Assembly (NCBI GenBank): GCA_943357985.1
Contig: CALRGR010000001.1
Span: forward strand, 14,731 to 78,730
Source: Candidatus Levybacteria bacterium GW2011_GWA1_37_16
GTDB taxonomy: Bacteria > Patescibacteriota > Microgenomatia > Levybacterales > UBA12049
DNA: 64,000 bases
Reading direction: 5' to 3'
Notes under the pieces: generated by a model
Told to the model about the DNA's origin: nothing
What the model saw: the letters and a program-made list of their open reading frames with translations, nothing else
Database searches by the model: none
Shown: in pieces, positions 198 through 39,245 of the stretch
Layout of the letters: each line of letters opens with the position of its first letter
Numbering within the stretch: the stretch's first letter is position 1
Position numbers and translations under genes: made by a program

Positions 198-1919
198 ATG
201 ATATACTGTAAATCACAAGCCTGCCTGCCGGCAGGTATTATTATGCCTACTGATTTTTTCAAAAAAGGTTTTAATCTTCTTCTTGCCCGCCAAACTAATA
301 TTATTTCCGCAGCATTTGTAATCATGATAACTGTCATTTTGTCTCAGGCATTAGGTCTTGTTAGGCAAAGATTGCTTGCTTCCATATTTGGGGCATCAGA
401 TATTTTGGGAGTATACCTTGCATCATCCCGGCTTCCGGATTTTTTATTTCAGCTTGTTATTGCAGGCGCTTTATCATCTGCTTTCATCCCTATTTTTTCG
501 GGATACTTGGCAAAGAATAAAAGGGAAGAGGCAAATAGGCTTGGCTCAACACTTCTTGTTTTTAGCCTTCTAATTTTTTCAATTCTGGCAGTTATACTTT
601 TTATATTCGCTGAATACTTTTCAAACCTTATGGCTCCCGGATTTTCCCATGACCAGGTTATTTTAATGGGAAATTTAACAAGAATAATAATTTTTGGAGA
701 AATTTTATTTATGATTGGAAGTTTCTTGTCAGCAGTGCTCCAGTCTAATAATCATTTTTTTGTTGCAGGTATTGCAGCCGCTTTATATAATCTTGGAATA
801 ATTATTGGGATATTTGTACTTTCTCCAATCCTTGGAATATATTCTGCTGCTTATGGTGTGGTATTAGGAGCTCTCATATTTGTCTGCGCACAAATTCCAG
901 GAGTCTTAAAAGTTGGTTTTTCCTTTAAGCCGTCTTTAAATTTTAGAGAAAGCGGCATGAAAGAAGTTATACAGCTTATGTGGCCAAGAACAATTGGGAT
1001 AGCTATATTCCAGCTTGGAGCGCTTCTTACCGTGACTCTTGTTTCATTACTTCCGGATCCAGGTAGAAGTTATGTAATTTTTGATTATGCACAGATTTTA
1101 TCTTTTGCTCCAATTGTTCTTTTTGGTCAGTCAATAGCGCAAGCGGCTTTTCCGGTTTTATCCAAAGAGAAAGATCAACTTTCAGAATTTAAAACTGTTT
1201 TTACGAACAGCTTTAACCAGATACTTTACCTGATGCTTCCAATCTCCGCACTTTTTCTGGTTCTTAGGATTCCAATTGTCAGACTTATTTTTGGAGCAGG
1301 GGCTTTTGATTGGCAGGCAACAGTTTTAACAGGAAGAACGTTAGCTTTTTTTAGCATATCACTTTTTGCACAGGCTCTTGTGTATCTTGTGTCACGCGGG
1401 TTTTATGCAATGCATGATGCAAAAACGCCCCTTTATGTTGGTGTTTTTAGTACAGCATTAATGCTTTCTCTTGGATTTTTATTAATTTCTTTTTATCACT
1501 TTGGAGTTGAGGGAATTGCTTTCGCTTTTTCAATTGGAAACATTATTAACTTTCTTCTTCTTTTTATATTTCTTGATAAGAAAGTTAATTTTGACAAAAT
1601 TTCCATGAGTATTTCTATTACTAAAATATTTGTAGCAACTTTTTTTACAGGATTTGCTCTTTATATTCCAATAAAACTTTTAGATCAATTGGTTTTTGAT
1701 ACAACCAGAACTGTAAATCTTCTAATATTAACCGGGATTGCAAGCTTTGCCGGACTTAGTCTTTATCTTTTTTTAACATGGATTTTGAATGTTGAGGAGG
1801 CAAAAACTTTTCTTTATGTGTTTAGAAAAATCGGAAACCTGTCTCGCGGCAAGGCGGGCTGGAAAGAAATTCTGGGAAAAAGTGAAGAAGTCATCGGTCC
1901 TCCAAGAACCAACCCCTAA
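198..1919 (+). CDS. murJ: Lipid II flippase MurJ/MviN. The probable true start is the ATG at 243 (MPTDFF...).
   Basis: 573-aa polytopic membrane protein. The N-terminal block LARQ..ISAAFVIMITVILSQALGLVRQRLLASIFGASDILGVYLASSRLPDFLFQLVIAGALSSAFIPIFSGYL matches the conserved MurJ N-lobe. Confidence 0.85.
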   Translation: MIYCKSQACLPAGIIMPTDFFKKGFNLLLARQTNIISAAFVIMITVILSQALGLVRQRLLASIFGASDILGVYLASSRLPDFLFQLVIAGALSSAFIPIFSGYLAKNKREEANRLGSTLLVFSLLIFSILAVILFIFAEYFSNLMAPGFSHDQVILMGNLTRIIIFGEILFMIGSFLSAVLQSNNHFFVAGIAAALYNLGIIIGIFVLSPILGIYSAAYGVVLGALIFVCAQIPGVLKVGFSFKPSLNFRESGMKEVIQLMWPRTIGIAIFQLGALLTVTLVSLLPDPGRSYVIFDYAQILSFAPIVLFGQSIAQAAFPVLSKEKDQLSEFKTVFTNSFNQILYLMLPISALFLVLRIPIVRLIFGAGAFDWQATVLTGRTLAFFSISLFAQALVYLVSRGFYAMHDAKTPLYVGVFSTALMLSLGFLLISFYHFGVEGIAFAFSIGNIINFLLLFIFLDKKVNFDKISMSISITKIFVATFFTGFALYIPIKLLDQLVFDTTRTVNLLILTGIASFAGLSLYLFLTWILNVEEAKTFLYVFRKIGNLSRGKAGWKEILGKSEEVIGPPRTNP

Positions 1920-1935
1920 ATGTTATAATCTCCCA

Positions 1936-3699
1936 ATGAATCAATCTCAAATTAGGAATTTTTGTATTATTGCGCATGTTGACCACGGTAAATCCACGCT
2001 TGCGGATAGACTTTTGGATATTACGGGAACTGTTTCAAAGCAGAAGATGCAGGAGCAGTATCTAGATAGTAATCCAATCGAAAGAGAACGCGGAATAACT
2101 ATAAAACTTGCTCCAGTGCGTATGAACTATTCGCTCGGCGGAGAGGATTACGAACTGAATTTGATAGATACTCCAGGGCATGTAGATTTCTCTTATGAAG
2201 TTGTTAGAACTCTTTATGCTTGCGAAGGAGCGGTTTTACTTGTCGATGCGACCAAGGGAATTCAGGCTCAGACTGTTGCCAATTACAATTTTGCAAAGAA
2301 CCAGGGGCTTACTGTAATTGCCGCAATAAATAAGATTGATTTGGAGTCTGCCAGAATTGATGAGGTAGAGAAAGAACTCCTAGATACCTTTGGTTTTTCA
2401 AAAGAAGAAGTTCTCTTGGTGTCCGCAAAAACCGGAGATGGAGCCGAGGATATATTAAAAGCAGTTGTTGAGAAAATTCCCACTCCTTCAGGTTCATCTC
2501 AGTTTCCAACACAGGCCTATATCTTTGACTCTATTTATGATGAGCATAGAGGAATTGTAATATTTGTAAGAATTAAAAACGGAAGTATAAAAAAGGGAGA
2601 TGAAATAATTTTTCTTTCGGACAATACCTCCGCACTTGTTTTAGATGTTGGTTTTATGAAGCCACAGTTTGAAGTTTGTGGGGAATTACTAAATGGGGAG
2701 GTTGGGTACATAATTACAAATATTAAAGATATTGAGCAAGCAAAAGTAGGAGATACAATTACGACTACTAAAAATAGAGGCGCCGCGCTTCCGGGATTCT
2801 TAAGTCTTAAGCCTTTTGTATATTTATCTATTTATCCAACCTCAAATTCCGAGTATCAAAGTCTTAGGAAAGCGATTTATAAACTCAAACTTAATGATGC
2901 TTCACTTGTTACTGCACCTGAGCAATCAATAATTTTTGGCCCTGGTTTTAGATGTGGATTTTTAGGTCTCTTACATTCTCAAGTTGTAATAGAAAGGTTA
3001 GAAAAAGAAAGCGGAGTTGATGTATTTACAGCACCTCCAACAATTGAATATCTTGTTGATGGTAAATCTGTAACAAGTCCTAAAGATTTTAGAAATGATG
3101 CTCTTGAAACAAAAGAGCCCTATATAATAGGTGAGATTTATACACCGGTTCAATATGTTGGGGGACTTCTTGAAATTATAAATGCGAGGCGTGGAAGACA
3201 AAAAGATGTTTTCTACTTTGGTTCTCAGGCAAAGCTTATTTTTGAAATTCCACTTGCTTCTGTTGTTTATGATTTTTATGACAAACTAAAATCCGCTTCC
3301 AGCGGCTTTGCATCTTTTGATTATGAAATATCAGAATATAGAGTGTCGGATCTTGTCCGTGTGGATATCTCTGTAAATGAAGATATAATTCCTGAACTTT
3401 CTTTTATAGTTCACAAGAGCGAGATGGAAAGTTTTTCAAGAAGAATTGTAGAAGTTTTATGCGAGGCAATTCCAAAACATCAATTTGTTATTTCTGTTAG
3501 GGCACAGCAGGGAGCAAAAATTATTGCAAGCGATAAGATAGGAACACTTAGAAAGAATGTTCTATCTAAGATGTCCGGTGGAGATAGAACAAGGAAAGAT
3601 AAATTATTAGATAAGCAGAAAGAGGGAAAAAAGAAAATGAAACAGATTGGAAAAATTTCAATTCCTAAAGAGGCATTTTTATCCGTCCTCAAAGTTTAG
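1936..3699 (+). CDS. lepA: Elongation factor 4 (LepA)
   Basis: NFCIIAHVDHGKSTLADRLL G1 motif, a DTPGHVDF motif, and the LepA-specific C-terminus ...KQKEGKKKMKQIGKISIPKEAFLSVLKV. The start is taken at ATG 1936 (MNQSQIRNF); the ORF-track start at 1789 overlaps murJ. Confidence 0.9.
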   Translation: MNQSQIRNFCIIAHVDHGKSTLADRLLDITGTVSKQKMQEQYLDSNPIERERGITIKLAPVRMNYSLGGEDYELNLIDTPGHVDFSYEVVRTLYACEGAVLLVDATKGIQAQTVANYNFAKNQGLTVIAAINKIDLESARIDEVEKELLDTFGFSKEEVLLVSAKTGDGAEDILKAVVEKIPTPSGSSQFPTQAYIFDSIYDEHRGIVIFVRIKNGSIKKGDEIIFLSDNTSALVLDVGFMKPQFEVCGELLNGEVGYIITNIKDIEQAKVGDTITTTKNRGAALPGFLSLKPFVYLSIYPTSNSEYQSLRKAIYKLKLNDASLVTAPEQSIIFGPGFRCGFLGLLHSQVVIERLEKESGVDVFTAPPTIEYLVDGKSVTSPKDFRNDALETKEPYIIGEIYTPVQYVGGLLEIINARRGRQKDVFYFGSQAKLIFEIPLASVVYDFYDKLKSASSGFASFDYEISEYRVSDLVRVDISVNEDIIPELSFIVHKSEMESFSRRIVEVLCEAIPKHQFVISVRAQQGAKIIASDKIGTLRKNVLSKMSGGDRTRKDKLLDKQKEGKKKMKQIGKISIPKEAFLSVLKV

Positions 3700-4832
3700 A
3701 AAGCAAGAAGAAGCGCGCCTAATATAGAAAGCATTATTCCCATGGCTCCAATTCCTACAATTTTATCTCCTGGACCTACCACTAGGGGGGGCGGGGGGGT
3801 AACTGTAAGGATAGGCGTAGTTTCTGCCACAGTTGGTGCCACTGTTGGTATTGCTGTTGGGGCTACAACTACACCGCCAGAGCCACCCGTTGATCCTGCG
3901 CTTGTTCCTCCTGCGCTTGTTCCTCCTGTTACCGTTATGGTCGTTGTACACGTTGTAGTGGCGCTTGTTGAATTTTGATTATCGGTTAGTACTGCCGAGG
4001 CAGTGTATGTTCCTGCATTTTGATATGTATGAGAGATTTGCGCATTAACCTTATTTGTGCCAATTCCTCCTGCCTGTGTGACATCCCCTATTTTTCCATT
4101 TCCAAAAGCAAAGCTTACTTTAGTTATTGTTCCATCATCATCTTTCCCCGTTGCCGTAAGAGTTAATGAATAAGGAGCGGCGCCAGTTGCGCTTCTGTCA
4201 AGGACAAGGCCACTACAAATAGGATCCTTATTTGTAGATGTTGTAGCGGAACTTCCGCCTTTGATAGTAACTGTTGCAGGAGTTGGTTGGCCTGGAACAA
4301 GTACATCTTCATTTGCCTGGTCCTTTGCTCCTACGGATAATACTTGCGTCTGTGTCCTGACGACTTCGATAGATGTTGTTGCACCATTCGTTCCGGCGAT
4401 TGCCTTTAAATTAATAGTGGCAATTTTTGTTGATGCTGAAATAATTTTTGTCAGATCTGAGCCAACAGATAAGGTTATGGATACATTTCCGGTGGTGTAG
4501 GTTGGCCCTTGAAGTGCAGTATCGCCGAAAGCTACTTTGTTCCAGGTAAAACCGTTACTTTGGTCTATGCTGAATTTTGTCTCATCATATTTAACAGTTA
4601 ATTTCACAAAGGAAACTTGATTTGTTCCCGGATCCATCGTCACATCGACTTTCACTATATCTCCAATACTTGCGGGTTGGGTTTGAGGCGTAAGAATAAG
4701 AGTTGTGGCCGGCGCTGCCTGGCTGGTTACTTGCTGGCTTTTTTGAGTCAGAAACACGGTTAAAGGAATTGCAAAAAGAAGAACAATAATAAAACCTAGG
4801 AGGAAGATTTTTTTACCTGAAAATAATGACAT
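3696..4832 (-). CDS. Cell-surface protein with an N-terminal signal/TM anchor, a cohesin-like beta-sandwich region, a PKD domain, Gly/Thr-rich linkers and a C-terminal hydrophobic segment
   Basis: Probable start MSLFSGKKIFLLGFIIVLLFAIPLTVF at 4832; the ORF track extends to 4892. It has a PKD-like block (FAFGNGK...HTYQNAGTYTASAVLTD) and a cohesin-like block (DIVKVDVTMD...VSFVKLTVKYDETKFSI). The C-terminus reads PPPPLVVGPGDKIVGIGAMGIMLSILGALLLAF. The gene contains the G7CG7 tract and a 15-bp tandem duplication. Confidence 0.6.
   Translation of the reverse strand: MSLFSGKKIFLLGFIIVLLFAIPLTVFLTQKSQQVTSQAAPATTLILTPQTQPASIGDIVKVDVTMDPGTNQVSFVKLTVKYDETKFSIDQSNGFTWNKVAFGDTALQGPTYTTGNVSITLSVGSDLTKIISASTKIATINLKAIAGTNGATTSIEVVRTQTQVLSVGAKDQANEDVLVPGQPTPATVTIKGGSSATTSTNKDPICSGLVLDRSATGAAPYSLTLTATGKDDDGTITKVSFAFGNGKIGDVTQAGGIGTNKVNAQISHTYQNAGTYTASAVLTDNQNSTSATTTCTTTITVTGGTSAGGTSAGSTGGSGGVVVAPTAIPTVAPTVAETTPILTVTPPPPLVVGPGDKIVGIGAMGIMLSILGALLLAF
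3785..3799. repeat. Homopolymeric tract GGGGGGGCGGGGGGG (C7GC7 on the coding strand, encoding PPPP) inside the surface-protein gene
   Basis: Read directly from the sequence. These are by far the longest G/C runs in an AT-rich window. Confidence 0.9.
3896..3925. repeat. Perfect 15-bp tandem duplication (cctgcgcttgttcct x2) encoding GGTSAGGTSAG in the surface protein
   Basis: Read directly from the sequence. Confidence 0.85.
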
Positions 4833-4917
4833 ATTTGCGATACAAAAACGCCTAGATTTATCGTATATAAGAAAGAGGTGGGTGTCAAGCAACTTCCTGC
4901 CTTGTCGGCAAGGCGGG

Positions 4918-4947
4918 TTGACATTAAAGAAGCATTCTTGTTATACT
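4918..4947 (+). promoter_or_regulatory. Putative sigma70-type promoter for groES-groEL (TTGACA, 18 nt spacer, TATACT). The GC-rich palindrome cctgccttgtcggcaaggcggg lies immediately upstream at 4897-4918.
   Basis: Consensus hexamers read from the sequence. No CIRCE element is present here. Confidence 0.45.
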
Positions 4948-7266: not shown

Positions 7267-7340
7267 ACTAGATTGTCCCGTTAGCCTCTTTGTGTTATAT
7301 TATTCTGACTCCTGTCTGCCGCGCGGGCAGGGCTTTTTCT

Positions 7341-8180
7341 ATGAAAAGATTTCTCATGTGGGTTGTTCCTCTTCTTATAGCAATCCCTGTTTTTATAGGA
7401 ACGGTTGTAATTTTGGCTCAAAAAACAGGAAAAGGTGCGCTTCAAGTTACATCTATTCCTGGTAGTCAAGTCTATCTTGACGGAAAATTAATTGGAAAAA
7501 CTCCGCTTTGCAAATGTGAGACCGCGGACATGATTCCTGTTGGAGACTATGCTGTAAGACTTGTTCCGTCAAGTGGAAATTTTCTGCCCTTTGAGGAAAA
7601 AATTACAATTTACAAATCAGTTCTCACGGTTTTAGATAGAACTTTTGGAAACGGCGCGTCATCTGAGGGAGTAGTTATAACCCTTACCCCAATTTCGGAT
7701 AAAAATGCTTCCCAATTTTTTTCAATTTCTTTTCCGGATAAGGCACAGGTTTTTCTTGACGGAAGTCCTGTTGGAAAAACAGCACTTCTTTTACCAAACA
7801 TTAGTCCATCGGATCATGAAGTAACCTTTAAAAAGGAAGGATACAAAGATAAAATAATTAGATTGAGAGCTGTTAAGGGATACAAGCTTAGCTCAATTGT
7901 CTTCTTGGGAATTTCGGACGCTATAGCAAGTCCCTCAGCAGTTGCTTCTTCATCTGCTGTGCCTGTAGTCGCAAAAATATTGATTCTTGCAACTCCAACA
8001 GGTTTTTTAAATGTTAGAGCATCCTCTTCTTTGTCAAGTGCAATTGTTGATAAAGTAAATCCCGGGGAGAGTTTCGAACTTGTTTCAGAAGTAAGCGGAT
8101 GGTATGAGATAAAGCTTGAGTCCCCAGCTGACGGAGTGAAAACAGGATGGATTAGTTCTTCATACGCCTCAAAGCAGTAG
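7341..8180 (+). CDS. Membrane-anchored protein with two PEGA domains and a C-terminal bacterial SH3 (SH3b) domain
   Basis: N-terminal TM (MKRFLMWVVPLLIAIPVFIGTVVILA). PEGA-like repeats (VTSIPGSQVYLDGKLIGKTPL and AQVFLDGSPVGKTALLL...HEVTFKKEGYKD). SH3b-like C-terminus (GFLNVRASSS...GWYEIKLESPADGVKTGWISSSY). The ORF track starts at 7290. Confidence 0.6.
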   Translation: MKRFLMWVVPLLIAIPVFIGTVVILAQKTGKGALQVTSIPGSQVYLDGKLIGKTPLCKCETADMIPVGDYAVRLVPSSGNFLPFEEKITIYKSVLTVLDRTFGNGASSEGVVITLTPISDKNASQFFSISFPDKAQVFLDGSPVGKTALLLPNISPSDHEVTFKKEGYKDKIIRLRAVKGYKLSSIVFLGISDAIASPSAVASSSAVPVVAKILILATPTGFLNVRASSSLSSAIVDKVNPGESFELVSEVSGWYEIKLESPADGVKTGWISSSYASKQ

Positions 8181-16348: not shown

Positions 16349-17077
16349 ATGCATGATTTAACTCAAAGGCAAGTTGAAATACTTAAGAGTTTGATTGAAG
16401 AATATATAGAAACCGCAGAGCCTGTTGGTTCTGAAACGCTTGAGAAAAAGCACAATCTTAGTGCATCTCCCGCAACTATTAGAAATGAAATGGTAAAGCT
16501 CACAGATTTGGGGTATCTTAAAAAGCCCCATGCTTCTGCAGGCCGTGTTCCAACATCCGAGGGAATGCAATTTTATGTAAAGCAACTTATGAGAGAGAAA
16601 GAACTTTCCGTTGTCGAAGAAGTTGCCATGAGAGAAAAAGTTTGGGATTACAGAGAAAGATCAGACAGATTTCTTAGAGCTTTGGTAAAGTCTTTAGCAG
16701 ATAGAACAAAAGCTTTGGCAATTGCCACAACTGAGGACGGAGACGTATATATATCAGGATACGCGAATATTTTAGATATGCCGGAGTTTTTTGATATTGA
16801 CGTGACAAAAAATTTACTTGAAACACTTGATGAATTGGGAGTAATTCAAAGCATTTTCGCAGGAGTTATAGGAGATGAAACTATACATATTCTTTTGGGA
16901 GACGAATTAGGCCCAAGACTAAAAGGACCTTACGGATGTGTCTTTGCAAATTATAAATCACCAAAGCATGCAGGGGAAATTGGAGTTATAGGACCTTCCC
17001 GTCTAAATTATACTAATATTGTGCCAACGGTTAGATATTTTGGAGATTTAACATCTGAAATTGCACTAGGATGGTAG
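16349..17077 (+). CDS. hrcA: Heat-inducible transcription repressor HrcA
   Basis: LTQRQVEILKSLIEEYIETAEPVGSETL...SASPATIRNEMVKLTDLGYLKKPHASAGRVPT is a canonical HrcA N-terminus. Confidence 0.9.
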   Translation: MHDLTQRQVEILKSLIEEYIETAEPVGSETLEKKHNLSASPATIRNEMVKLTDLGYLKKPHASAGRVPTSEGMQFYVKQLMREKELSVVEEVAMREKVWDYRERSDRFLRALVKSLADRTKALAIATTEDGDVYISGYANILDMPEFFDIDVTKNLLETLDELGVIQSIFAGVIGDETIHILLGDELGPRLKGPYGCVFANYKSPKHAGEIGVIGPSRLNYTNIVPTVRYFGDLTSEIALGW

Positions 17078-34992: not shown

Positions 34993-36281
34993 ATTATGCC
35001 TATTATTTTAAAATTTTCTAAGGCCTTTTTTGTTTCGTTCAAATTATACACGGTTTGACTAAATAATGTATATACCGTTTCTCCTTTTTCAAATTTTTCT
35101 CCAATCTTTTTATTTAGGTAAATTCCTGAGGCCTTTTCTATAGGAGCACCTAGTAATTTTGCTATGATAGTTAGGTTTTTGCCATTGATTTGCTTAACTT
35201 CTCCACGTCCACGAGACTTTACTTCAAAAGAAAATTTTCCCGGTTTTAAATCTCCACTTTTTATTCTTGGATTTCCTCCTTGTGCTTTTATAATTTCCTT
35301 AAGTTTTAAAAGAGCACTACCATCTTGTAGGAGTTTTGTAGCCCACTCAAAACCATTTCCATATTCCTCTTTAATTTCATCTTGTAGTTTCTTTGGAGAA
35401 TCCGTAAGGCAAAGATCTAAAAGGTTGCCTGCCAAATTTAGGCTTCTTGTTTCAAGATCTGCCGCTCTGTTAGGTTTTTGTTCCAATACCATTAATGCTT
35501 CGCGGGTTTCAAGTACCGGACCAATTCCTCGTCCAGCAGGTTCATCTGTTCTGTGAATTAGAACCCTAATTTTTATATGAAACCTTTTTGCTAAATATTC
35601 AAACTTATTTTTTAAAATTTTTGCATCGTCAACGTTATGGACTTTTGCCATTTTTCCGTATGGAACATCAATTACAACATGATTTGACCCAAAGGCAATT
35701 TTTTTTGCCATTATAGAAATCAGTACCTTATCATAACTTTCAAAAAGAAGAGGTCTCTCAATGTTGATAAGAATGTCATCTGCGGGGGCCAGATTAAATT
35801 TTCCTCCCCACACAAGGCAACCGTTGGTTTTTTCAACTACTTCATAAATTTTTTCTTTTGTAAGTTCAACAGGAGCAAGTATTTCCATGTCGTCAGCAGT
35901 TCCTGTTGGGGTAGTTATTGCCCTGGATGAACTTTTGGGAATTTTAAATCCTGCGGCTGCGATAATTGGGACAACTATTAAAGTAGTTCTTGTTCCTGCA
36001 ATTCCGCCAATTGAATGTTTGTCTGCAACTATCCCTTTGAATTCTAGTTTGTCTCCTGTATCAACCATCGCCTTTGTAAGAAAGTAGAGTTCCTGATTAC
36101 TAAACCCTTTTGAATATCCGGAGGCGGCAAAGTAGGTAGTTAAGACATCGCCAAGTCTTTTATTCACTATCTCATCCATTATGGAGTAGACATCTTTATA
36201 ATTTAGTTTTTTTCCAACTAATTTTTTTCTAATTGCGTCTAGAGCTCTTGCTTGAAGTTGTGCTTCGTCAGATGTTGTCAT
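34989..36281 (-). CDS. deoA: Thymidine/pyrimidine-nucleoside/AMP phosphorylase family enzyme (glycosyl transferase family 3, DeoA-like)
   Basis: DKHSIGGIAG (KHSTGGVGD-type phosphate loop) and TTPTGTADDME, with the overall family layout. Substrate specificity is undecidable from the sequence. Confidence 0.75.
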   Translation of the reverse strand: MTTSDEAQLQARALDAIRKKLVGKKLNYKDVYSIMDEIVNKRLGDVLTTYFAASGYSKGFSNQELYFLTKAMVDTGDKLEFKGIVADKHSIGGIAGTRTTLIVVPIIAAAGFKIPKSSSRAITTPTGTADDMEILAPVELTKEKIYEVVEKTNGCLVWGGKFNLAPADDILINIERPLLFESYDKVLISIMAKKIAFGSNHVVIDVPYGKMAKVHNVDDAKILKNKFEYLAKRFHIKIRVLIHRTDEPAGRGIGPVLETREALMVLEQKPNRAADLETRSLNLAGNLLDLCLTDSPKKLQDEIKEEYGNGFEWATKLLQDGSALLKLKEIIKAQGGNPRIKSGDLKPGKFSFEVKSRGRGEVKQINGKNLTIIAKLLGAPIEKASGIYLNKKIGEKFEKGETVYTLFSQTVYNLNETKKALENFKIIGII

Positions 36282-37009
36282 TATATTTTTTCAAGCCTTG
36301 CTTTTATAACAAGTCTTTTCCATATTGTCCCGGGCGGAGTACAGGTAATTAAGGTTAAATATGAGTTGTCGTAATTTTGGGTAAACACAGATGTATCATT
36401 GGCATCAACGACGTAGATATTATAAATCTTATATGAATAAGTAACACCACCAACATTGGTAAAAATTTGATCTCCCGTTTTAAGATCCAATACATGTGCA
36501 AAAATTGTTTTGTAATCATTCGGATCATAAAGCTGAGGAAGTGTGGAGTGCCCAAATATTACAGCATTTCCTGCATTTGGTGGAGTTGATGTCCCCATGT
36601 AATTAACTAAATGTTTTGAAAGGTCATAGTCGCTTGTTGAAACCTCTGCATTTTTAATATTGAGGGCAGGAATTGAGAGAGTATAGGATAAAGATTTGCC
36701 GGAGTTTGCTTGAACTCTAAAACCGGGAAACCAGTTTTGGGCATTTGTGTAATCGACTCCGGATATTGAACTTTTTGCCTGCGCAATAAGCATTTGAATA
36801 AGTGCCGGATTAAGAACGTTTTTTCTGGGAATTGGAGCTTCAATGTTTTGAGATGTAAGAGCAGGAGCAGAATAAATTTGCCATAAAATAAGAGGAGAGA
36901 ATATGTATAAGCATACTAAAATACCAATTGTAAAAAGTCCGAGACCAACTCCTTTTATAAATTTTTTTAAATTTATTTTGTTTCTCTTTTTATAGTAGAT
37001 TTTACTCAT
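36281..37009 (-). CDS. Sortase-family transpeptidase with an N-terminal membrane anchor
   Basis: Catalytic His (AVIFGHS), the Cys motif YLTLITCTPPG (TLxTC), and a downstream Arg (WKRLVIKARL). N-terminal TM GLFTIGILVCLYIF. The gene overlaps the upstream gene end by 8 nt, so they form an operon. Confidence 0.75.
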   Translation of the reverse strand: MSKIYYKKRNKINLKKFIKGVGLGLFTIGILVCLYIFSPLILWQIYSAPALTSQNIEAPIPRKNVLNPALIQMLIAQAKSSISGVDYTNAQNWFPGFRVQANSGKSLSYTLSIPALNIKNAEVSTSDYDLSKHLVNYMGTSTPPNAGNAVIFGHSTLPQLYDPNDYKTIFAHVLDLKTGDQIFTNVGGVTYSYKIYNIYVVDANDTSVFTQNYDNSYLTLITCTPPGTIWKRLVIKARLEKI

Positions 37010-39245
37010 TGGAATTAATTGAAAACTTTATTTTTCCTGCTGTAGGAAGAGTTTTTGGGAAAAGGGGGATGTTGGGAGAAATGTTAATATTAGCATTTGA
37101 TATCTGAGAAATATTTGTCAAAATATTTTGAGCAGTTGTAATGTTTTTTCCACTAATTTGTTTTGCAAGATTTGCCTCGTCAATCTTTGGAAGAAGAAAG
37201 CCGGAAATCTCTAAAGTTGTCCCTGCTTCACTACCACTTTTTACTTTAATATTTTTTGCATTTGTTGCTATCCTGCTTTCATCAAAAATGAGACTGTCTT
37301 GGATTTGTAAAATTGTTTTGGCAAAAGAAATTAAGTCACTTTTATTGTAAGTAATGCTTTTATAACTAACGTCTGCTTTTAGAGTTACTTTACTTGTCTC
37401 ATCTCCCTCTTTCTTATCAAAGTCTTTTTTGCCTAGAGTCTCACTTACAAATACAGGAAGAATAACTCTATCCCCCGAAGCCTTTTTTGAAACATCATTT
37501 CTTGCTTTTTCTTCTAAATTTTTAATAAGATCGCTTTCAAGTTTTGCAACATCATCTTTTGAAACAACAGTTATGCTTTTTTTAGTTCCACCCGAAAAAG
37601 GATTATCATTTTTTGCAGCGATTGATGAGTCGCTAAAAGAAAATTTGGTGTTGGACGGCAGGTTATAGTTAGTTCCAATATCCGCTGCCGTAACTGTTAC
37701 ATTTGTTGTACCAGGATTAGTGGGTGAAAATTGGTCTTTAGCAGATGCCGATGCAACTGTTATCGATTTGTCGATTATAAATTTAAGATTATTTGAAGAG
37801 GTGATTGTGCTATTTGCTGGAATATTTATCGAAGATAGATTTTGATTAAAAATAGTTACAGTTCCTTTTGCAGCAGTTCCAATATTTTTTTTTCCAGTTG
37901 CATTCGTTGTCGTACTCCCATTTTCGGTTACATCTACAAACTCGGCCGCAATTATGTTTTTACTGGCATCTGTTGAGGAGCTTGTACTAAAAACTACGTC
38001 TTTTTCCTCGCTTACCTTTTTGCCTTCCAAAGAAAGTGTGACTGTTGCATTTCTGCCAAAGAGATAAACAGAAAGAAGAAGTAAGAAGAGTATTAAAAAA
38101 AGAGCTGGAATAGCAATAAATTTATTTCCTTTTGGAATGGAAATAGATGAAATAATGGGAAGTTTTGAAAAGCTGTTTTTTAGTACTTTAAATAATTTTG
38201 GCAATATACTTATTGCTCCTAAAAGTACTTCGTTTGCGTTTGTAGATAAAGGTTTTCTTTCTTCTATGACTTGTTGTTGGTCGGGTATCTCGTCTATTAT
38301 ATTTGAAACAGCCATATTTTCCTCTACTGCTTCAGTTTTTTGTTGGATGTTTTTTGCAACATCTCTATCTTTGACAAATCCAAAAGGTTCTTCCGGTAAG
38401 TCTTCTGAAATTTCTGTTGATGTTTTTTCAACGGATAGAGACTCCTTGGTATTTTTTTCTGTTATTTTAGAAGTAGTCCCCTTAGGTGTTTCACCTAAAA
38501 TTTGAAATCCCATTTCTGATGCAGCGCCAGATAAAACTGCCTTTGCATCAAATCCTTGTTCAAGATTGCTTATTTGAGGAAGATGTAAAAAAGGTAAAGT
38601 TTTGCTCCATGTATGTCCGATAAATTCCTGAGTTAGATCTTTTTCTCCATTAAAAATGATTACGCGGGATGGAAGTACTTCTACGTCTTCAAAATATTTG
38701 AGGAGTGTATCAACTGTTTGGGTAGTACTTCCTTCAAGCTTTGCGCTTTTTACTTCAATAATTTTTCCGGCCCTAATTAAAGAAACTGAAACGTAGTCTT
38801 TGTCAATTTCTGCCAAAACTGCAGAAACAGGCGCGCCTTCTTCTTTTGCCAGGAAGTGTGCTACGGCTTCCGTAGTAATAAGAAAACCGACTGGTACGAG
38901 TCCAAGCTCCTCGCTTATTTTTTTAAGTTTCCCTAAATATTCTTTTTTAATTTTACTGTCTTCAATCCAATTTTCTTTTAATCCAAAAATTGTTTTTTGG
39001 GTTTCAACATTCCCAGGAAGTACACTTTCTGCTTTTGAAATTGTCTTATCCACTACGTTTAGTAGCTGTTCATCTGTTGCTGTTTCTATGGAATCTTGAA
39101 AATTTTCAGAGGCTTGATTTATAATCTTTACTGTTCCGCCTGATTCTTCAAAAATGACGGCGTTTGCCTTATTGTGTCTTAGCACCAGGACTAAAAAATA
39201 TGAAAGATCTTCTTTTTTTGCGAAAATTTGGAGAGATAGTTTCAT
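37002..39245 (-). CDS. Large bitopic membrane protein. It has a cytoplasmic N-terminal domain of about 350 aa (possibly an FtsA/PilM-like actin-fold domain), a single TM, and an Asn/Ser/Thr-rich extracellular domain of about 370 aa ending in LPTAGKIKFSINSNE.
   Basis: TM helix FIAIPALFLILFLLLLSVYLF at about residue 360. The extracellular part is beta-rich and low in charge. The gene is co-operonic with the sortase gene. Confidence 0.45.
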   Translation of the reverse strand: MKLSLQIFAKKEDLSYFLVLVLRHNKANAVIFEESGGTVKIINQASENFQDSIETATDEQLLNVVDKTISKAESVLPGNVETQKTIFGLKENWIEDSKIKKEYLGKLKKISEELGLVPVGFLITTEAVAHFLAKEEGAPVSAVLAEIDKDYVSVSLIRAGKIIEVKSAKLEGSTTQTVDTLLKYFEDVEVLPSRVIIFNGEKDLTQEFIGHTWSKTLPFLHLPQISNLEQGFDAKAVLSGAASEMGFQILGETPKGTTSKITEKNTKESLSVEKTSTEISEDLPEEPFGFVKDRDVAKNIQQKTEAVEENMAVSNIIDEIPDQQQVIEERKPLSTNANEVLLGAISILPKLFKVLKNSFSKLPIISSISIPKGNKFIAIPALFLILFLLLLSVYLFGRNATVTLSLEGKKVSEEKDVVFSTSSSTDASKNIIAAEFVDVTENGSTTTNATGKKNIGTAAKGTVTIFNQNLSSINIPANSTITSSNNLKFIIDKSITVASASAKDQFSPTNPGTTNVTVTAADIGTNYNLPSNTKFSFSDSSIAAKNDNPFSGGTKKSITVVSKDDVAKLESDLIKNLEEKARNDVSKKASGDRVILPVFVSETLGKKDFDKKEGDETSKVTLKADVSYKSITYNKSDLISFAKTILQIQDSLIFDESRIATNAKNIKVKSGSEAGTTLEISGFLLPKIDEANLAKQISGKNITTAQNILTNISQISNANINISPNIPLFPKTLPTAGKIKFSINSNE

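Follow-up and report, generated by a model that had tools for sequence, protein, structure and literature searches.

The stretch of DNA analysed here, a window of 64,000 nucleotides (nt) from Candidatus Levybacteria bacterium GW2011_GWA1_37_16 (contig CALRGR010000001.1, positions 14,731 to 78,730), carries on its minus strand a gene for a conserved Levybacteria surface protein of 378 amino acids (aa), which we call gene X, and near the 3' end of that gene a tract that reads C7-G-C7 on the coding strand. The open reading frame (ORF) of gene X occupies window positions 3696..4832 (ATG at 4832, TAA at 3696-3698), and its product is identical to database protein P0001. An earlier note on this DNA had proposed that the tract is a phase-variation switch, in which slippage would frameshift away the C-terminal anchor of the protein.

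The tract lies at 3785..3799, exactly where the earlier note had placed it: the plus strand reads GGGGGGG (3785-3791), C (3792) and GGGGGGG (3793-3799), between the flanking sequences CCTGGACCTACCACTAG and TAACTGTAAGGATAGG. On the coding (minus) strand these 15 nt comprise the last two bases of Thr345 (ACC), the codons of Pro346-349 (CCC CCG CCC CCC) and the first base of Leu350 (CTA), so that ACC CCC CCG CCC CCC CTA is read as T345-P346-P347-P348-P349-L350. This is the sole place in the window with a G/C run of at least seven, the next longest G/C runs being 6 nt. It is not the sole long homopolymer, as had been supposed, since A/T homopolymers of 8-9 nt occur 12 times in the window; the tract is longest only among runs of G or C. 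Runs of seven G as such occur no more often than chance predicts (2 in the window; 2.48 +/- 1.89 in shuffles that preserve dinucleotides), and the composite G7CG7 is expected 0.02 times in random DNA even with two mismatches allowed.

The protein consists of two predicted transmembrane (TM) helices, two beta-sandwich domains and a disordered stalk. An AlphaFold model built on an alignment of 120 homologues has a mean predicted local distance difference test score (pLDDT) of 86, with beta-sandwiches at residues 43-191 and 205-302. The N-terminal TM helix (residues 7-33, 4734..4814, minus strand, from the predicted model and the family alignment) is the most conserved part of the gene X family, and it was the source of both peptide patterns picked from the alignment for the search for orthologous loci. 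The first sandwich (residues 43-191, 4260..4706, minus strand) is assigned a cohesin fold from the model and from a Foldseek comparison with the PDB, in which the best matches were the cohesins 6kgf (E 1e-9), 1g1k and 5nrm, with target TM-scores of 0.76-0.82 (0.82 for 5nrm). The Pfam cohesin family PF00963 is a precomputed annotation of many homologues and finds no match in the gene X protein of the window itself. The second sandwich (residues about 205-302, 3927..4220, minus strand), assigned from Pfam and the model, is a PKD domain, with PF00801 matching residues 216-296 (E 3.3e-10, 40.3 bits against a gathering cut-off of 23.5). These matches bear out the earlier description of a PKD/cohesin-like surface protein. 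Gene X thus resembles cohesin/PKD scaffold proteins, both cellulosomal and surface ones, in that residues 43-191 superpose on type I cohesins and the PKD domain passes the Pfam cut-off; it differs from cellulosomal cohesin scaffolds in being a small protein of the candidate phyla radiation (CPR) with one cohesin-like module and two TM helices, at about 20% identity to cohesins.

The stalk that follows (residues 303-357, 3762..3926, minus strand; pLDDT about 44-54) is rich first in Gly/Ser/Thr and then in Pro/Thr/Val/Ala, and ends in PPPP-LVVGPGDK. It contains two tandem repeats on the minus strand: a perfect 15-bp duplication at 3894..3928 (2.3 copies, 100% match in Tandem Repeats Finder), which encodes GGTSA-GGTSA and is missing from the relative P0003/L002, and an imperfect 12-bp repeat at 3825..3849 (2.1 copies, 92% match), which encodes PTVA-PTVA. 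The 15-bp repeat shows that the linker of gene X evolves by slippage or duplication, and to that extent the repeat-mediated variation read from it in the earlier note stands; being in frame, the duplication is uninformative on phase variation, and that part of the argument falls away. A C-terminal TM helix is predicted at residues 358-377 (IVGIGAMGIMLSILGALLLA; 3702..3761, minus strand), within the last 21 residues of the protein, and is separated from PPPP by LVVGPGDK. The placement of PPPP directly upstream of a C-terminal hydrophobic anchor was therefore right.

All combinations of run lengths from 5 to 9 were enumerated for the consequences of slippage. Loss of one base from either run leads immediately to a TAG (...CCC TAG) and a product of 349 aa ending in TPPPP or TPRPP; gain of one base in a run gives 7 residues, ending in ...SGRSRR, before a TAA and thus 356 aa; and compensating changes in both runs swap one residue. 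The tract lies inside the ORF, and every change of one base in either direction alters the product and loses the C-terminal helix, just as the earlier note had predicted. Its further claim, that the protein would be released or truncated, holds for truncation; release is uncertain, because the conserved N-terminal TM segment, if uncleaved, would still tether the protein.

Variation in tract length was sought among strains and relatives. Five contigs of the window lineage are on record in NCBI, ENA and Logan assemblies, all of them in frame: four encode exactly P0001 and one encodes P0002, which differs by Q50P. In one of them, L001, the assembly runs through the tract without a break and matches the window at 100% identity over 6415 nt, and no difference in tract length is seen among the five. 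Eight slip products (+/-1, +/-2 and compensated) were looked up as exact sequences in a collection of 15 billion proteins, and none is present. The homologue search returned no truncated near-identical protein, and no match above 69% identity except P0001 and P0002. A search with the tract flanks and a variable gap, which would accept any tract length, gave 0 matches in GTDB genomes and JGI metagenomes, as did the back-translated pattern LVVGPGDKI[VI]GIG in JGI metagenomes. These null scans mean that the window lineage is not in those collections, and the nearest GTDB orthologue, just 57% identical, is too distant to inform on the tract.

The named homologues of gene X belong to Candidatus Levybacteria/Levyibacteriota, in the Microgenomates group of Patescibacteria. 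Fourteen orthologous loci include both flanks, and gene order is kept in every one of them, with groES-groEL on one side (divergent from gene X) and lepA-murJ on the other (convergent with it), and this identical placement marks gene X as a single-copy syntenic core gene. A Gly-rich hydrophobic tail with no basic residues after it was found in 118 of the 120 homologues listed, the two exceptions being P0007, which NCBI names partial, and P0040, in which a Lys lies within the tail and an Arg closes it. The tract itself is missing from the 14 orthologous loci, which use CCA/CCT and have no G/C run of at least seven in the gene. In the alignment, P-P-P-P-L-V-V-G-P-G-D of the window stands against P-T-P-T-L-A-P-T-G-P-G-D of the relatives, so that PPPP takes the place of the last P-T-P-T of the stalk.

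Just one relative, L002, shares this tail (P0003; a Logan contig from SRR13727527, at about 80% nucleotide identity). Its tract has the same total length, and PPPP and the second C7 are retained, with the first run broken to CCCCTCC by a synonymous CCC>CCT change. The comparison with related genomes that the earlier note had called for therefore turns out against it: the tract is lineage-specific, absent from the other orthologues and interrupted in the one relative that shares the tail. The likeness to L002 is itself uneven. A block at about 2970-3870 of the window, comprising the 3' third of lepA and the 3' end of gene X, is 92-100% identical to L002, against 55-88% in the flanks; identity at third codon positions inside and outside the block is 0.84 vs 0.65 in lepA and 0.78 vs 0.54 in gene X. 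The block boundary near 3870 falls in the low-complexity linker, and more distant relatives have no such identity peak in gene X. This mosaic looks like inter-lineage recombination or a chimeric short contig. As the shared tail sits within the recombination-like block, L002 counts as one shared segment and not as independent conservation, and for that reason the argument that PPPP, being kept in P0003, shows selection on the protein was down-weighted.

We consider that the tract is probably ordinary coding sequence for poly-proline in a stalk prone to slippage, its frameshift potential being incidental and low in rate, rather than an evolved switch. Where the rest of the family has T-P-T-P-T-L, the aligned sequences show T-P-P-P-P-L in this lineage, in C-rich codons, which yields two 7-nt C runs. 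Two A>C changes (Thr>Pro) may have given rise to the tract, which would then be a by-product of poly-proline coding in a fast-evolving, slippage-prone linker and not a contingency switch kept by selection. Slippage in the C7 runs is physically possible; its frequency should be no more than the low one that 7-mers typically have (in the bacteria studied, about 1e-8 to 1e-5 per generation), and, since the anchor is kept in the family, purifying selection would eliminate the slips that do arise. That the anchor is kept almost throughout the family indicates that anchorless alleles are evidently not tolerated at the consensus level.

Several observations weigh against this interpretation. CCC makes up 11.5% of the Pro codons in the window, and three of the four CCC codons of gene X lie in the tract; the neighbouring Pro codons of the stalk are CCA/CCT. 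Given T(ACC)-PPPP-L(CTA) and the Pro codon usage of the window, one C run of at least seven is expected with P = 0.14, and two such runs with P = 0.0015. With so odd a choice of CCC, selection on the DNA or an origin driven by slippage may still have played a part. The stop codon of the -1 frame (CTAG) falls exactly at the end of the tract, so that the anchorless product is a clean one, and 7-nt tracts are recurrent indel hot spots and act as phase-variable sites in Mycobacterium tuberculosis, one of them 15 bp from a stop codon (PMC10334774). The sample is also small, the five contigs being all that the collections searched hold of the window lineage, and consensus assemblies cannot show minority length variants.

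A heritable C-terminal phase-variation switch, in which slippage in either C7 would reversibly toggle between a form with the helix or sorting tail and a form ending in ...TPPPP or ...TPRPP, and so change the hold of the cohesin-PKD ectodomain on the surface, is in our judgement unlikely. It draws support from the improbable codon choice, from the uniqueness of the locus among G/C runs in the 64 kb, from the loss of the helix in all single-base outcomes (with an immediate stop at -1), from the doubling of the target by two adjacent runs, and from the nature of gene X, surface proteins being the usual class of target. The tract reaches the published minimum, G/C runs of at least seven being the lowest cut-off for phase variation, although the authors who set it caution that the mutability of 7-mers may be below 1e-5 (PMC6321876), and a 7G tract in M. 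smegmatis underwent 3.1e-8 frameshifts per generation (PMC10334774). Phase variation of the C-terminus forms a recognised class (PMC2823697, PMC5320596), and the closest systems are those of Helicobacter canadensis (Snyder 2010, PMC2823697) and Neisseria gonorrhoeae (Zelewska 2016, PMC5320596), where, as here, the ORF carries close to its 3' end a poly-G/C tract whose length alters or shortens the C-terminus without silencing the gene. Tracts demonstrated to act in this way measure G10 or more in H. canadensis, with variation at the level of reads (PMC2823697), and G8 in N. gonorrhoeae (PMC5320596), their lengths varying among reads or from strain to strain, whereas the window has two runs of exactly 7 nt, at the lowest cut-off and shorter than any demonstrated C-terminal example, in a core syntenic gene in which no variation is seen and the tract is unconserved. 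A precedent for the loss of an anchor is the simple-sequence-repeat-driven loss of cell-wall anchor motifs in S. agalactiae (Janulczyk 2010, as cited in PMC5320596): by that account a repeat lies upstream of a sortase-type tail and a slip removes the anchoring signal, as it would here, but the S. agalactiae proteins have canonical LPXTG motifs and differ between strains, while in gene X the motif is degenerate (PLVVG), a basic tail is lacking and variants are not known. The tracts of the Mycobacterium tuberculosis complex (glpK 7C and the 3' end of ppe13; PMC10334774) match gene X in length and in the reversibility of their frameshifts, and include the hot spot close to a stop; they rest, however, on thousands of independent arisals among 31,428 isolates and are set against a neutral rate of 3e-8 per generation (PMC10334774), compared with five contigs for gene X. 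What disfavours a switch is that the runs are only 7 nt long, that no variant occurs in the five contigs or among the 15 billion proteins, that the first run is synonymously broken in L002, and that a lineage-specific tract lies in a family that keeps its tail almost universally; the window has no general enrichment of G/C tracts, and the N-terminal helix may keep the protein tethered regardless.

The same stop codon could be reached without heritable change, by a +1 shift of the ribosome on CCC-C or by slippage of RNA polymerase, which would give mostly anchored protein and a minor anchorless isoform ending in PPPP. Peptide-bond formation slows at PPPP, as is known from the biology of EF-P, and CTA, the next codon in the 0 frame, accounts for 9% of Leu codons. 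Slippage in the +1 direction is well established for CCC-N proline codons (PMC7577736), and further studies deal with CCC-C. Were the ribosome to shift by +1 on the final Pro codon of CCC CCC C|TAG, the A site would be occupied by TAG and the product would be exactly ...TPPPP; the C-terminal peptide predicted for a slip or for +1 recoding is ...ETTPILTVTPPPP. The context, however, is not special, since CCC-C is common in the genome (C follows 23 of 82 CCC codons), and error-level frameshifting is expected at many sites without programming. No stimulatory element or RNA family was found near the tract (Rfam gave no match at E <= 1 there, and no terminator-like site was predicted), and in L002 only the second run is shared, the first not being kept. 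We regard recoding as very unlikely. A function of the nucleic acid itself is harder still to credit: the plus strand, as GGG-G-GGG-C-GGG-G-GGG, could form a three-tetrad G-quadruplex at which polymerases might pause, or which might stabilise lepA read-through transcripts at their 3' end. The sequence fits the canonical motif of four runs of at least three G with loops of 1-7 nt (G3-N1-G3-N1-G3-N1-G3), has no counterpart elsewhere in the window on either strand, and is located 86 nt beyond the stop codon of lepA, on the strand that serves as template for gene X. The G-quadruplex model of ViennaRNA gives -42.3 vs -9.0 kcal/mol for 3770-3815, and no terminator-like hairpin for lepA or gene X, that is, no intrinsic terminator, is predicted between the two convergent, overlapping genes. 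At least one such motif nevertheless occurs in 11.5% of simulated windows, so that its presence is not significant; it is degraded to G7-C-GG-A-GGGG in L002, absent from the other orthologous loci and fully explained by coding for PPPP, which makes a structural role extremely unlikely. Homopolymers are error-prone on some sequencing platforms, and the tract might on that account be an artefact of miscalling or assembly. This explanation was rejected: an identical in-frame protein is found on four contigs (NCBI, ENA, Logan) and its Q50P variant on a fifth, L001 is identical base for base, L002 has the same second C7, and such independent identical assemblies effectively refute it.

Were C7-G-C7-TAG a working device, whether through heritable slippage or through +1 recoding at CCC-C-UAG, it would make an anchorless beside an anchored form of a phylum-wide cohesin-PKD protein in the CPR; we hold this to be distinctly unlikely. 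A full-text literature search returned no paper joining phase variation, homopolymeric tracts and Patescibacteria, and the case, if true, would be the sole one of repeat-mediated surface switching in the CPR that such a search finds. The surface proteins of CPR bacteria probably mediate attachment to host cells, and a true switch would extend repeat-driven surface variation, a pathogen-centred subject, to ultra-small uncultured CPR bacteria and make a conserved cohesin-PKD protein a target of fluctuating selection. At best it would be a new candidate of the known C-terminal kind of phase variation. The locus also offers a caution, in that a short G/C run encoding poly-proline in a Pro/Thr stalk reaches the formal cut-off for phase variation without any sign of switching. 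The by-products of the analysis are perhaps of longer use, namely the anatomy of a phylum-wide surface protein beside groESL, an LPXTG-like tail that lacks basic residues at its end, and the presence of a sortase gene in this genome.

The tail recalls the sorting signals of Gram-positive bacteria. The family consensus before the hydrophobic segment is [LI]-x-P-T-G-P-G-[DE], and its site in the window is L350-V-V-G353-P-G-D-K (3762..3785, minus strand), in which neither Pro nor Thr precedes G353. The sortase-like motif is degenerate in the window lineage (PLVVG). Family members share with LPXTG/sortase signals the [LI]-x-P-T-G followed by a C-terminal hydrophobic helix, and a sortase is encoded in the window; they differ from them in having no positively charged tail and no NCBIfam model, and the window allele further lacks the Pro and the Thr of the motif. 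Thus P-L-V-V-G-P-G-D of the window does not conform to an LPXTG-type pentapeptide, the extreme C-terminal hydrophobic segment is present (a helix is predicted at residues 358-377 of 378), and the protein ends in ...LGALLLAF with no positively charged tail. For two homologues with the consensus tail, NCBIfam gave no match of any sort at E <= 1; for the window protein, NCBIfam gave a single unrelated sub-threshold domain match at residues 221-237. The same tail was found in no other protein of the window. The sortase gene (36281..37009, minus strand; 242 aa; PF04203, E 3.4e-21) has a TLITC active-site motif and is unlinked, that is, not adjacent, to gene X; it shows that enzymes of the class acting on LPXTG-type tails are encoded in this genome. 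It shares 8 nt with the end of an ORF of 747 aa (37002-39245, minus strand), for which Pfam gives no match and which contains a hydrophobic segment in its interior, and the two may form a sortase-associated surface protein operon. A literature search on sortases and LPXTG motifs in the CPR gave one incidental mention.

The remainder of the window is made up of housekeeping genes, among them dnaK/dnaJ/hrcA, nusA/infB, pnp, RNase J, ftsK, rpoBC and ribosomal protein genes. The stop codons of the convergent lepA (plus strand) and gene X (minus strand) overlap by 4 nt (3696-3699). The ORF called lepA (636 aa, from 1789) overlaps the 3' end of murJ (198-1919) by 131 nt, at window positions 1789-1919; LepA in the databases has 587 aa, so the true start of lepA is probably further downstream than 1789. 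Upstream of gene X lies a promoter-like TTGACA-17-TACGAT (4860..4888, minus strand), and divergent from it a promoter-like site for groES (4918..4947, plus strand); both are consensus matches only, and both have a perfect TTGACA -35 box. The gene for the repressor HrcA is at 16349-17077. Downstream of groEL, a protein with PEGA and SH3_3 domains is encoded at 7290-8180 (plus strand), probably a further envelope or surface protein near gene X. Among the orthologous loci, L004, L013, L014 and L016 come from GTDB records of metagenome-assembled genomes titled 'uncultured Gammaproteobacteria bacterium'; each has a Levybacteria-type groESL-X-lepA-murJ locus at 35-39% GC, and the titles are probably mislabelled.

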